Shown here one piece after another: positions 22,026 through 35,819 of a stretch of DNA of 64,000 nucleotides (positions are counted from its first letter, which is position 1; each line of letters begins with the position of its first letter). Where the stretch lies: the IMG/VR virus record IMGVR_UViG_3300045999_013174. One strand, given 5' to 3'. The stretch is from a virus. Under the pieces are notes generated by a model. It saw only the letters and a list, made by a program, of their open reading frames with translations. It had not been told where the DNA came from and searched no databases. Made by a program: the position numbers and the translations under genes.

Positions 22026-25000
22026 ATGGAAAACGCCCCATTAATTGCTGAGGAACCTACAATGGCTCAGCAAGTTACACCTGAGCCAACCCCGGAGCCT
22101 ATTGATTCTCCTGTTGTCGATGACGCGGTTGTTGATTTAATCAGCCAAGAGGGAGACCCTCAGCCTCCCGCTATATCAAAGTTTATGGTCAAGCAAAAAG
22201 ACCTTGATGACTTTGTCGCTACGGGTCTTGATAATCCTGACTACACTTTTGAAATGGCATCGGAGGATTTTCCTGAGTTGAAGGATAACCCTGCGCTATG
22301 GGATTTGTATATTGATTATGCGGCGACTGTTAATTCGGGGAGGTATTCAACCTATGACGAGATTAACTCAAAGTTCCCTGAATTTGAGTTTGTTGAAGAC
22401 GCTCAGATTGAGGCCGCGACCGGTAAAAAAAAAAGTGGAGGCGATTCGTCATTATTCCAAATACCATCGTACTCTGCTGTAGATGTTCCTGGTAAGGCGC
22501 CTTCTTTTGCTTCTCAGGTTCAGCCGGGTACTGGGCAGCCGGCGCCCTTAGCTAATAATTTTGGAGTCATTCCGAATAGTCTCCTGGCTCAGATGCGAGC
22601 CGGTAGTGAAAAGGAGCTTGAGCGGCGGTATAATCTACCTCTCTCGGAGATTGAGAAAGAGGTTCGGGTGGCTAACCCTGACTTATCGGATACCGATGTC
22701 TTTTTGACCACCGCAGGTATAAAGGCCAAGGCTATAGAGTGGAAAAAGGAACAGATTGAAGGAATCGGCCTCAATCTACCAAAAACTCCGGAGGGGCTTG
22801 AAGCTTTACTAAAGAACTACGATGCTGCTGTTTCCTCAAGCGGATACCCTGAGGCTATTAAAAGGGCTACTCAGTCGGCTGCGGTGTACAAGGATTGGGA
22901 AAACACTCCTGTCCCCGAATTTAACGCAACCCCCCAGCAACTTAGTGATAAGTATGTTGAGCTACAGGGCGTTTTTGCGGAGCAGAAAGAACAGCTTGTC
23001 GCTCTCCAGCAAAAGATTTCTGAGCTTGGTATTACACCTCAGACTCAAGACCCTCGGCTTTGGCAACAATATGAAGCCCTTAAGGCTCAGGAAGGTCTTA
23101 TTCTTGGCCCAATTAACGCTACGATAAATGAAATGAAGCGCATTGAGCCGGTTCTTAATGAGGGCGTTGATAAATACAATGCGCTGAAAAGTCTTTATGA
23201 TGAAGCAGAGGCTTTGCGAGCCAGCATTGACCCTGAGGTATTGGCCAAAGGGGAGCTTGCTATAAAGGAGCTTACTCATCTTCAGACGATGACAGCGGCG
23301 CAGCTTAAAAAGGAGGGTTACACTCCGGCGTCATATAGCCAAGAACTCGCGAGGCTTAATGACCAAGTTGAGCAGATGGGTTTATACATGAACACCCCTG
23401 ACCGGGAAATGGACAAGCTTGACAAAGAACTTTCGCTTATCCAAAAAAACGCTGCTAATGTAAAAAGACTTTTATCCTCAACAGGTGTTCAGCTTAAGCA
23501 GTTAAGCGACAAGGCCGCCCAGCTTTTTAGGGACGGGCGTCACTCGGAGGCTAAGGAGGTTGCGAAACAAGTGTATGCTGTTCAGCAAGAATTTAAGAAG
23601 TATCAGGAAGACTTGAGGCGTCATTCTCGCAAGTACCAAGAAAACTATGCAAAATACGAGAAGATTGCCGCTTATAAAATAGAGATTCAGCGAACGCTTA
23701 ATGACCCCAGGTGGAGAGAGAAAGAGCGTGAGGCTCAGGTTGCCAGGATGACCACAGGTGGTAAGGCGCTTCGCCTCACCGCCGAGGCTATTGGGGATAT
23801 TGGTAAATACATGGGTATGGCTGCTCTTGCCGCATCGTCTCTGCCGTATGATATTAATATGGCCTTTGGGGTTAACCAAGGCGTCTCGACAGCCATGCTC
23901 GCAGGTTTAGACAAGGCGGCAGACGACCTTAATAAATGGTACGAGAAACAGATGCCGTCAATAAAGCCATATACGGAAGAGTTGAAAGGCGGATTTATCA
24001 CTGACTTTAATGCGTTAAAGCTTTTTAATGTCACCATAAACGGCGTTGCTTCTCTTGGGACAACAGCCGCAGCCACCATCCTTTCCGGAGGAAATGTTGG
24101 TATTGGAGTTGCGGCTGGATTCGCTCAGGTGTACGGGGGTATGTACTACGAAGCAAAGGAGGCTGGTTTGGATGGGTATAACGCCCAGCTCTTTGCTGCC
24201 TTGGTTGCTACGCCGGCCGCTCTTGGTGACAAGTATTCTCTTGGGGCTCTGCTTGGCGGTATGCAAGGCTCTTCAAGAGCCGCCATGAGGGATGCTATAA
24301 TTAGAACTATAAGGGAGAGTGGAGGAAAGGTGACTGCCAGCACTGTTCTTTCTGCCTCAAAAGCGGCTACTGCGGTACTCTTCAAAGCATCCGCTCCGGA
24401 AGCTTTGGGTGAGGGTGGCGAATTTGTGGTAGAAGAAGGAATGAAACAGCTCTATAATGCCTTAGGAGTCAATGGTGCCCATTTTGAGACGGTTGATGAC
24501 TATTTGCAGTTTGCTGAGCAGTTTGTTGAAAATGCTGTAGGCGGTTTTATGGGTGGTGTTACCGTGGGTATCCCAGCGGCCTATAAAACTATTGTGTCTC
24601 CGAAGCTTTCCGAGGCAGCTCGTATGGCTGTATCGGGAGAGGATGCTGATAAAAACGACAAGGCGTGGTATGCGCTCGCTCAGCAAATGCTTGATTCCGG
24701 GGAAATATCCCAGTCGATTTACGACAAGGCCGTGGGTAGGTATGAGTCTATGAAAGAGTTTTTCAAAACCAGCCTACCTAAATCTATCACCAATGAGTCG
24801 GCGATTATCCAGGCAGGGGCTCTTCTTCAAGAGAAGAAAGAGCTTGCTGAGATTATTAAAACCTCGGACAAGGCGCTTGCTGTAAAAGAAGCTCAGCGTA
24901 TAACTGAGATTGACAGAATGCTTGGCGAGATTGCCGATAATAATCGTCCGGTTCATGAGCCGTCTGTTCTTGAGGTCACTGATACCGACGACCCTACTAC

Positions 25001-35819: not shown

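Follow-up and report, generated by a model that had tools for sequence, protein, structure and literature searches.

Which kind of protein is encoded by a single open reading frame (ORF) of 4,597 amino acids (aa) in a viral genome? The question is raised by the IMG/VR record IMGVR_UViG_3300045999_013174, of which one stretch of 64,000 nucleotides (hereafter, the window) was analysed. In the ORF listing of the window, the frame occupies positions 22026..35819 of the plus strand and begins with ATG. We consider it likely that the product, called here the giant protein, is the largest internal (cargo or ejection) protein of a crAss-like podophage with a muzzle, and that its conserved core carries host-modifying, enzyme-like modules. 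Both the packaging in the virion and the enzyme activities are predictions from sequence comparison. A sequence-only reading of the same DNA had proposed a giant polyvalent ejected virion protein, and this proposal is supported by the gene order, by the homology to internal virion protein D (IVP-D) of podoviruses, and by the PHROG, Pfam and BFVD labels of the relatives. Its presentation as a candidate for a new system was overstated, because giant cargo proteins of crAss phages (cr50_1; PMC10172136) and polyvalent proteins (PMC5512222) are already known.

The translation of the ORF has one stop, the terminal one. With 3 stops in 64 codons, the chance of 4,597 open codons is (61/64)^4597, about 1e-96, and therefore a chance origin of the frame is excluded, as had been claimed for the 13.8-kb stop-free frame; the ORF itself had been given exactly. 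The gene is also carried by a second strain, whose protein (P0014) is encoded on the independent JGI contig Ga0315902_10000449 (locus L012, JGI 3300032093; 69,447 bp). This contig starts within the giant gene, at giant aa 706, and reads without interruption to the same stop. When L012:3-11585 was compared with window 24141-35819, the protein identity between the two strains was 96–99.7% outside one segment, which is described below. Within aa 2286-4597, 145 codons differed synonymously and 21 non-synonymously, and the corresponding numbers within aa 2421-3180 were 90 and 16. Because a second strain carries the frame, and the synonymous differences far exceed the non-synonymous ones, these results clearly indicated that the giant ORF is a real, constrained and conserved gene of a crAss-like phage.

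The giant protein is the longest among the family members seen, and an exact-sequence look-up of the 4,597-aa product in the gene-position index found nothing on record. The repeats and the hypervariable segment of the gene probably hinder its assembly, which may explain the absence of the full-length product from the records. The strain variant and the window are distinguished by an indel of 8 residues in a Pro/Ala repeat near aa 1480. No match was obtained by megablast of 25 kb against GenBank phages, and no relatives were returned when IMG/VR was scanned with the C-terminal and central regions of the giant protein and with the portal. Word-index searches with aa 3181-4597 and with aa 2501-3180 also returned nothing; the latter query was probably swamped by its low-complexity linkers.

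The 1,499-aa protein encoded upstream matched the Pfam model crAss_MUZ (E 1.2e-31; 110 bits against a cut-off of 27). By tblastn, it was about 25% identical to proteins of Crassvirales that are labelled 'stabilization' or virion structural, and all of the 54 records matched were Bacteroides phages or uncultured human-gut phages; every matching record with taxonomy that was examined (cr50_1 and crAss001) belongs to the Crassvirales. Portal, fibre and endolysin genes are also recognisable in the window, and its tail genes are of the crAss podovirus type, not a long-tailed set. Judged from these genes, the phage is crAss-like and muzzle-bearing, not T7-like as the comparison in the sequence-only reading implied. 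A Logan contig extends the window by 4.8 kb on the upstream side, to a total of 68.8 kb, and the strain contig is 69.4 kb; the genome is therefore probably about 70 kb long, with almost all of it seen.

The giant gene lies in a co-directional late block between muzzle and fibre in all relatives examined (four related loci). The order of muzzle, a protein of ~200–230 aa, a protein of ~470–620 aa, a giant protein (2,518–4,597 aa) and three conserved genes recurs in loci L010 and L011, where giants of 3,394 or 2,518 aa follow the muzzle gene and genes for ~230 and ~470–540 aa; the slot of the 622-aa gene is filled there by 536-aa and 472-aa genes. In L009 and L012, the part of this order from the giant gene through the three downstream genes recurs. 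The three downstream genes encode 192/346/400 aa in L009, 200/330/394 aa in L010 and 188/366/391 aa in L012. Together with a small ORF of 109 aa, which was seen in the strain-variant locus L012 and falls below the 150-aa cut-off of the window ORF listing, they separate the giant gene from the 842-aa fibre gene. Thus, the position claimed earlier was right in that the giant gene follows the 203-aa and 622-aa ORFs, and less exact in placing it before the fibres, as four ORFs lie between.

The same slot is found in Desulfovibrio phage ProddE (Autographiviridae), in which tail tubular protein B is followed by the internal virion proteins B, C and D of 205, 646 and 1268 aa and by the fibre. The window has the muzzle, 203 aa, 622 aa and 4,597 aa, so that the giant protein occupies the third and largest slot. 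From slot and size, we infer that the 203-aa and 622-aa proteins are candidate ejection proteins in the positions of IVP-B and IVP-C, respectively; the assignments go no further since no sequence similarity was detected.

To what family the giant protein itself belongs was indicated by its C-terminal part. An exhaustive HMMER search with aa 3398-4597 gave 430 cluster representatives at E<=1e-3, 109 of them at E<=1e-10. In the top 150 relatives (83–4,386 aa), the core ends at, or within about 190 residues of, the C-terminal end, with a median of 7 residues after the last match. The full-length relatives have 961 to 4,386 aa, of which about 1,000–1,100 residues are matched. Because some of them consist of the core alone (P0030, 961 aa), the C-terminal core of about 1,000 residues is probably the ancestral unit, to which the N-terminal parts were added. 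With hhalign, the core profile aligned to the ProddE internal virion protein D at 99.6% probability (E 1.4e-24; 480 columns; giant aa 3732-4449). In addition, tblastn with P0030 matched six annotated podovirus proteins, named 'internal virion protein D' or 'internal core protein', from ProddE and from Pelagibacter, Roseobacter and Synechococcus podoviruses, which are T7-like phages of marine and freshwater origin. Among 22 relatives, PHROG labels were 'internal virion protein' for six and 'DarB-like antirestriction' for five, and the Pfam polyvalent-protein domains ART-PolyVal, LPD3 and ddrB-ParB were found in the relatives.

The AlphaFold2 (AF2) model of the C-terminal 1,200 aa, made from 30 sequences, consists of helices with almost no strands (pLDDT 60.6; 75–91 in the best stretch). 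In a BFVD structural search, the core model gave 23 matches at E<=1e-3, with low TM-scores of 0.2–0.28. These neighbours are pieces of phage proteins labelled as ART-PolyVal-like, 'large polyvalent protein associated domain', MuF C-terminal and PolyVal ADP-ribosyltransferase. No Pfam model matched the core in the giant protein and 22 relatives, no relative was found in the PDB by sequence, profile and structure searches, and no lytic transglycosylase domain, as in the N-terminus of T7 gp16, was detected in the giant protein. The earlier description of a C-terminal third full of hydrophobic helices holds for the helices, but its transmembrane flavour was overstated, because aa 4063-4081, a stretch of 19 residues with a Kyte-Doolittle value of 1.71, is the only strongly hydrophobic stretch there. 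The closest separate relative, L009 (JGI 3300013133; L009:2-9793), is 51% identical in the core. Its region homologous to the giant protein is divided into two ORFs of at least 671 aa and 2,481 aa with a 330-nt gap; the division may be genuine, or it may come from a frameshift or an intervening element.

By comparison with these relatives, the architecture of the giant protein is that of the probably ancestral core preceded by an N-terminal extension of about 3,400 residues. The extension comprises a helical region, a Gly-rich and moderately hydrophobic region, and an array of modules set between Pro/Ala or basic linkers; the array holds an ADP-ribosyltransferase (ART)-like domain, an HExxH domain present in an intact and a degenerate copy, and a truncated kinase-like domain. 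The ART-like, HExxH and kinase-like modules each have their own homologues in other architectures. The Gly-rich module (aa 620-974) matched P0018 (aa 368-710; E 9.5e-13) and P0063 (E 6.9e-10) by phmmer, and its hydropathy peaks are at aa 669-702 and 833-851. For the coiled-coil N-terminal quarter described by eye, matches to coiled-coil Pfam models were weak only.

Pro/Ala linkers had been noted by eye, and a scan of composition and disorder propensity found five of them. The first is at aa 1009-1086, and the others, which are likewise of low complexity and rich in Pro/Ala or basic residues, are at aa 1257-1292, 1417-1488, 2500-2550 and 2851-2884. A small domain had been described as repeated three times. 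Three such segments of ~50 residues do exist, each directly after a low-complexity linker, but their similarity is weak (16–18% identity), and the phmmer E value of 3e-6 takes in part of the linker. A helical leader was found to be duplicated (aa 1546-1642 resembling aa 2549-2644; internal repeat E 3e-6), which had escaped the sequence-only reading. In P0008 and the L009 relative, this leader stands in front of the ART-like domain, and P0110 and P0119 contain it as well.

The sole HExxH of the giant protein, H2679-E-L-A-H2683, had been read as a zincin motif, and it was confirmed as a single motif within a domain that has strong homologues. The domain matched phrog_9880 (E 3.7e-21), a 2,748-aa protein of Leptolyngbya phage Lbo-JY46 that also has a GNAT domain (50% identity, E 1e-30), and a 1,974-aa phrog_9880 protein of Caudoviricetes vir555 (35% identity), which is encoded after an 'internal virion protein' gene. 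Thirteen metagenomic homologues were found at E 1e-14 to 1e-36, and HExxH is kept in 12 of them; the other, P0013, ends before the motif. Searches against Pfam, the PDB and by fold gave no confirmation, and the domain is a putative zincin-like one from its motif and the polyvalent-protein literature (PMC5512222). A second copy without the histidines, also overlooked before, precedes it (aa 2295-2412; self-similarity to the intact domain E 5e-12). This copy is the only confident part of the AF2 model of aa 1570-2420, and is helical with a pLDDT of ~80.

The kinase-like domain (aa 2985-3151) matched phrog_4301 at E 2e-3 and Pfam YrbL-PhoP_reg at E 0.024. It is kept in P0015 (E 3e-60) and in the 4,386-aa P0119 (E 5e-18), a protein that additionally contains ART-like and HExxH domains and a methyltransferase. 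The three proteins share the V[IL]KV lysine, GD....[NQ]WG and [VL]D[AG]G, and in each the domain ends soon after. No match was obtained by tblastn against GenBank phages even at E 1, and phmmer against the PDB gave chance matches only. The pattern fits the kinases lacking a C-lobe in polyvalent proteins of Bacteroidetes and Verrucomicrobia phages (PMC5512222). Accordingly, what had been called a kinase-like segment stands as a conserved domain, while its identity as a kinase comes from the weak matches just given.

An ART-like module (aa 1641-2285) was not noticed in the sequence-only reading. Its layout is H1648-G-S, G-L-Y1676-F-T, an insert of ~540 aa, and T-H-Y-V-A-F-K-D. The Pfam model ART-PolyVal was sub-threshold on the giant protein (E 0.007–0.013; 17 bits against a cut-off of 31.2). 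On six independent homologues, ART-PolyVal, PARP and DUF3990 were likewise sub-threshold in the same region (E 1e-5 to 1e-2), and one family member was above threshold for ART-PolyVal (E 2.4e-11). A cleaned query of 327 aa recovered 13 metagenomic proteins, and these show a conserved three-part unit made of the helical leader (NIRDLY..NR.LFS...DR), the ART-like domain and the HExxH domain. The consensus of the ART-like part is WHGSPY.F.KF..GEGAQAFGWGLYFT ... GFNYVVFDE, and that of the HExxH domain is PLHELAHVFEHYLT ... TSEYFARGFEKYL. In the giant protein, the full unit occurs once, at aa 1570-2412, with the insert inside the ART-like domain and the HExxH histidines gone; its second occurrence, at aa 2573-2785, consists of the leader and the intact HExxH domain. 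The profile of the ART/HExxH module had a sole match in the PDB, to an alpha/beta-hydrolase, which was judged to be spurious.

The segment in which the two strains differ is the ART-like module. Their protein identity was 62% in aa 1641-1700, 36% in aa 1701-2235 and 50% in aa 2236-2285, compared with 96–97% before aa 1641 and 99% from aa 2286. At the DNA level, no similarity between the strains was detectable in window ~27062-28862, and the flanks were 89–96% identical. The boundaries of the hypervariable segment coincide with those of the ART-like module, and MHGS, GEGFQMY, G.YFTD and THYV.F.D.D are retained in each of the two alleles. The difference seems to be an allelic replacement of one functional module by recombination. 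The pattern resembles the recombinational variability on which Iyer et al. speculated for kinase-containing polyvalent proteins (PMC5512222).

Several results weigh against the interpretation of the giant protein as an internal virion protein with enzyme-like modules. None of the three enzyme-like assignments passed the curated Pfam thresholds, the Pfam models MPTase-PolyVal and Kinase-PolyVal did not match the giant protein, and sequence and profile searches of the PDB gave no homologue of it. For aa 1570-2420, the AF2 model was poor (pLDDT 49.7), and Foldseek with this model against the PDB was empty, with no fold match. T7 gp16 was not among the PDB matches of the sequence and profile searches, in a library that was not checked for the gp16 chains. 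The link to protein D is based on the names given by annotators to the podovirus homologues and on synteny, not on a solved T7 structure. Furthermore, the 203-aa and 622-aa proteins showed no similarity to IVP-B and IVP-C of ProddE by BLASTP, nor to the C1 and C2 cargo proteins of crAss001. Some of the enzyme modules may be inactive, because the L009 relative has Gln in place of the ART His (YQGAS) and the first HExxH copy is degenerate.

From part of these results, the giant protein could be a structural or scaffolding ejection protein, either tape-measure-like or conduit-forming, in which the enzyme-like segments are decayed and non-catalytic remnants. The sub-threshold assignments and the altered His residues are compatible with it, and so is a protein that is mostly helical with long linkers; tape-measure proteins are included in the BFVD matches, only at E > 0.07. 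We nevertheless regard it as unlikely. The intact HExxH is kept with the downstream S-E...E in the 12 metagenomic homologues that reach the motif and in the two phage proteins, the ART motifs H...Y...[H/N]-Y-V-x-F in both of the diverged strain alleles, and the K / D..N / D-x-G pattern of the kinase-like domain in three proteins. The synonymous differences dominate in aa 2421-3180, as described above, no tape-measure family of Pfam or PHROG matched the giant protein, and the crAss-type muzzle means a short tail. It is scarcely conceivable that the single frame is an artefact of assembly or annotation joining several genes, although the homologous region of L009 is in two ORFs and the exact product is not on record. 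The independent contig has the same uninterrupted frame from its first base to the same stop, the relatives have uninterrupted genes for 3,394, 2,518 and 4,386 aa, and conservation at the codon level extends along the whole compared length. The protein might also be made in the infected cell for anti-defence or takeover, with a DarB-like function, and remain unpackaged, its position among the structural genes being coincidental. The PHROG label 'DarB-like antirestriction' on five of the 22 relatives would agree with this, together with the ddrB-ParB, Sno-type helicase and methyltransferase domains of relatives. On the other hand, P1 DarB is itself packaged in the virion, which counts against an unpackaged protein. 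The core matches annotated internal virion or core proteins of podoviruses, and the co-directional late block from muzzle to fibre was seen in all relatives examined. In the equivalent block of crAss001, every gene encodes a virion component (PMC10172136). We assign this explanation a low probability.

Whether the giant protein is a fusion with a virion RNA polymerase was considered as well. All of gp45–gp50 of crAss001 were identified as virion cargo by mass spectrometry (PMC10172136), and a single polyprotein in some crAss-like phages unites the polymerase with the zincin-containing protein and a third one (Drobysheva et al., bioRxiv 10.1101/2020.03.07.982082). In cr50_1 (L001, NC_055868.1, 18678-33002), a 4,774-aa coding sequence follows the muzzle and two genes of ~650 aa, and contains HEAFH at aa 1665, the polymerase motif GSDFDIDK at aa 3154 and an SF1 helicase. 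The giant protein shares its locus and size class, and could be such a polyprotein of the 'transcription block', in which a zincin-like protein, a polymerase with two double-psi beta-barrels and DFD[IV]D, and the third protein are fused, and the polymerase has diverged too far to be recognised. In fact, crAss polymerases are extremely divergent: gp66 of phi14:2 does not match cr50_1 by phmmer, and the epsilon-group polymerase is detectable by HHpred only (PMC11054128). Three DxDxD strings are present in the giant protein. However, those at aa 1814 and 2095 fall within the hypervariable segment, where the strain variant has them replaced or deleted, and the third, at aa 1206, is in a small domain. 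No string of the form D[FYWLIVM]D[IVGLM]D occurs in any frame of the window, nor the narrower D[FYW]D[IVLMG]D in L005, L009 and L012. No similarity to gp47, gp49 and gp50 of crAss001, g065–067 of phi14:2 or cr50_1 was detected by BLASTP, phmmer, hmmsearch and hhalign, the nearly strandless model of the C-terminal 1,200 aa had no barrel match, and the core is homologous to internal virion protein D instead. From the literature, motif scans, phmmer, hmmsearch, hhalign and the structure modelled for the C-terminal 1,200 aa and, poorly, for aa 1570-2420, the polymerase fusion was rejected as very improbable. Two other candidates were also dropped. P0157 has the length of crAss001 gp47 (2,341 aa) and is unrelated to it, and weak profile matches to crAss001 gp46 and cr50_1 gp58 (E 0.01–0.9) were not reproduced by hhalign.

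How an internal virion protein carrying enzyme-like modules might act can be outlined by combining the synteny and homology with what has been published on crAss001, T7 and polyvalent proteins. The giant protein would be made late with the structural genes, and stored in the capsid or tail cargo space alongside the 203-aa and 622-aa proteins. At infection, it would be extruded through the muzzle, largely unfolded, ahead of or with the DNA, and the conserved core and the hydrophobic N-terminal region may help to build or traverse a conduit spanning the envelope. The central modules would then reach the cytoplasm and modify host proteins by ADP-ribosylation and phosphorylation, and the HExxH domain may cut the polypeptide at the linkers, freeing the modules. 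The ART-like module is exchanged between strains, as expected of a part under host counter-selection. More speculatively, and with considerable doubt, we suggest that this crAss-like lineage gave up the virion RNA polymerase, that a T7-type protein-D core delivers exchangeable host-modifying modules, and that the ART-like one is a polymorphic-toxin cassette swapped by recombination to track host targets or defences.

What is new here is that a phage with a crAss-type muzzle has a core of the T7-type protein D and shows no virion polymerase signature; the size of the protein and the hypervariable ART-like segment are new as well. The polyvalent proteins, the cargo proteins of crAss phages and the ejection proteins of podoviruses are already established, and no new principle is involved. 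If the reading as an internal virion protein is true, it links two groups usually treated apart, one with the muzzle tail of crAss phages and the other with an internal core protein D of the T7 type, and shows the growth of an ejection protein of about 1,000 residues into a 500-kDa enzyme carrier. The sharply bounded ART-like replacement would then mark the part most exposed to host selection, and the module would be a concrete target for finding host modification at phage entry. Because the core has 430 representatives, and matched neither a Pfam model nor a solved structure, a structure of the core would annotate many phage proteins at once.

Table 1. Features in and around the giant gene (coordinates are positions in the window; residues are those of the giant protein).
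Feature	Residues (aa)	Coordinates	Strand	Basis or remark
Muzzle protein (crAss-type tail gatekeeper), 1,499 aa		14995..19494	+	Pfam crAss_MUZ
Met/Gly/Gln-rich protein, 203 aa		19491..20102	+	Candidate small ejection protein, gp14 / internal virion protein B slot
622-aa protein with Pro/Lys-rich tail		20109..21977	+	Candidate ejection protein, gp15 / internal virion protein C slot
Giant ORF, 4,597 aa	1-4597	22026..35819	+	ATG start; second strain carries the gene
Gly-rich, moderately hydrophobic module	620-974	23883..24947	+	phmmer to P0018, P0063
Pro/Ala-rich linker	1009-1086	25050..25283	+	Composition and disorder-propensity scan
Small repeated domain, copy 1	1491-1545	26496..26660	+	Internal similarity
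Helical leader 1	1570-1632	26733..26921	+	NIRDLY..NR.LFS...DR...GIT
ADP-ribosyltransferase-like module	1641-2285	26946..28880	+	Sub-threshold Pfam
Degenerate HExxH-domain copy	2286-2412	28881..29261	+	'MLVGAFETYL', histidines lost; downstream S-E-F-F kept
Small repeated domain, copy 2	2436-2495	29331..29510	+	Internal similarity
Helical leader 2	2573-2632	29742..29921	+	Internal repeat
HExxH domain	2640-2785	29943..30380	+	Putative zincin-like metallopeptidase; H2679, E2680, H2683; conserved S2711-E2712...E2719
Small repeated domain, copy 3	2886-2940	30681..30845	+	Internal similarity
Truncated protein-kinase-like domain	2985-3151	30978..31478	+	Candidate K3019, D3110, N3116, D3128
All-alpha C-terminal core	~3400-4460	32223..35405	+	HMMER relatives, AF2, hhalign
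Core part homologous to internal virion protein D	3732-4449	33219..35372	+	hhalign
Three downstream genes, 188, 366, 391 aa		35892..38739	+	Conserved, travel with the giant gene

Other observations were made in the window. In the 48-nt gap just 5' of the giant ATG, which is without a Shine-Dalgarno-like sequence, an 8-bp inverted repeat at 21992-22024 (GCAGACTT, 21992-21999; AAGTCTGC, 22017-22024) flanks TATATTTG (22002-22009), which we take to fit the Bacteroidota -7 promoter consensus TAnnTTTG. The arrangement may serve the 622-aa gene as a terminator, may be a regulated promoter or may have arisen by chance, and a scan for sigma-70 promoters and terminators around the giant gene was near background. 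At the start of the window (1-834, plus strand), the sequence falls inside a 770-aa gene (L005:3290-5602) with a weak Prim-Pol match, and the 268-aa 'TTG' ORF at 28..834 is the C-terminal part of that gene, not a separate one. The structural block contains a 350-aa protein (9974-11026, plus strand) with a near-threshold match to ubiquitin-E1 FCCH (PF16190, E 2.6e-6; 27.8 bits against 29.5), and the identical gene in L005 has the same weak match. An AT-skew spike of 0.28, against about +/-0.1 elsewhere, is located at 42001-44000 over small ORFs just before the endolysin gene. The leftward (early/replication) block contains tRNA-Tyr(GTA) at 56663-56746 and tRNA-Arg(CCT) at 60109-60181 on the minus strand. 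A 381-aa glutamine-amidotransferase-like gene is at 60778-61923 on the minus strand (phrog_25883, E 2.5e-14; weak Pfam GATase_4/6). In the Cellulophaga crAss-like phage phi14:2, a Gn_AT aminotransferase adjoins an amidoligase, and this may be a nucleotide or DNA-modification module shared by the two phages.

Among known systems, the closest likeness is to the proteins at the gp16 position of T7-like podoviruses, which are annotated as internal virion protein D or internal core protein (ProddE; Pelagibacter HTVC119P/200P; Roseobacter CRP-804/114; Synechococcus S-CBP3). The C-terminal ~720 aa of the giant protein are homologous to it, the slot is the same, behind the tail-tip gene and a pair of smaller internal proteins that are nearly equal in size (205/646 versus 203/622 aa), and both this protein and the core are predicted to be largely helical. 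However, the giant protein is 3.6 times longer, with about 3,400 extra N-terminal residues containing the enzyme-like modules, and its phage is crAss-like with a muzzle, not a member of the Autographiviridae. Polyvalent proteins with an H-Y-D-type ART, an HExxH metallopeptidase and a kinase lacking the C-lobe were described in 2017 (Iyer, Burroughs, Anand, de Souza, Aravind; PMC5512222), the kinases mainly in phages of Bacteroidetes and Verrucomicrobia. The giant protein likewise joins several unrelated effector-type domains, with its gene among the late virion genes, and its ART-like, HExxH and kinase-like modules are the same trio of domain types. It differs in that ART-PolyVal remained sub-threshold and the two other PolyVal models had no match, and in its 1,000-aa core without a Pfam model, which was not compared with the unnamed LPD domains of that paper.

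The giant cargo proteins of Crassvirales (crAss001 gp47/gp49/gp50; phi14:2 gp65–gp67; the 4,774-aa protein of cr50_1) are, like the giant protein, encoded downstream of the muzzle and two smaller cargo genes. They are of the same size class and contain HExxH with other enzyme modules, exonuclease-like in gp47 and a helicase in cr50_1. In crAss001 gp47 (L004:9120-16145), the exonuclease-like stretch (phrog_298, E 1e-6; aa 1703-1862) lies upstream of HEAFH at aa 2157, and because of this pairing the classical crAss cargo proteins also look 'polyvalent'. The cr50_1 sequence is annotated as 'DNA helicase' only, so that the public annotation understates its zincin-type and polymerase motifs. The cargo of crAss001 is a proven virion component (PMC10172136). 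The giant protein lacks the DFD[IV]D motif and detectable similarity to these proteins, and its core is of the T7-type protein D family. A giant podovirus capsid protein that is ejected is also known from coliphage N4, in which the virion RNA polymerase gp50 (~3,500 aa) has a zincin-like HExxH domain that is needed for its encapsidation (PMC5512222).

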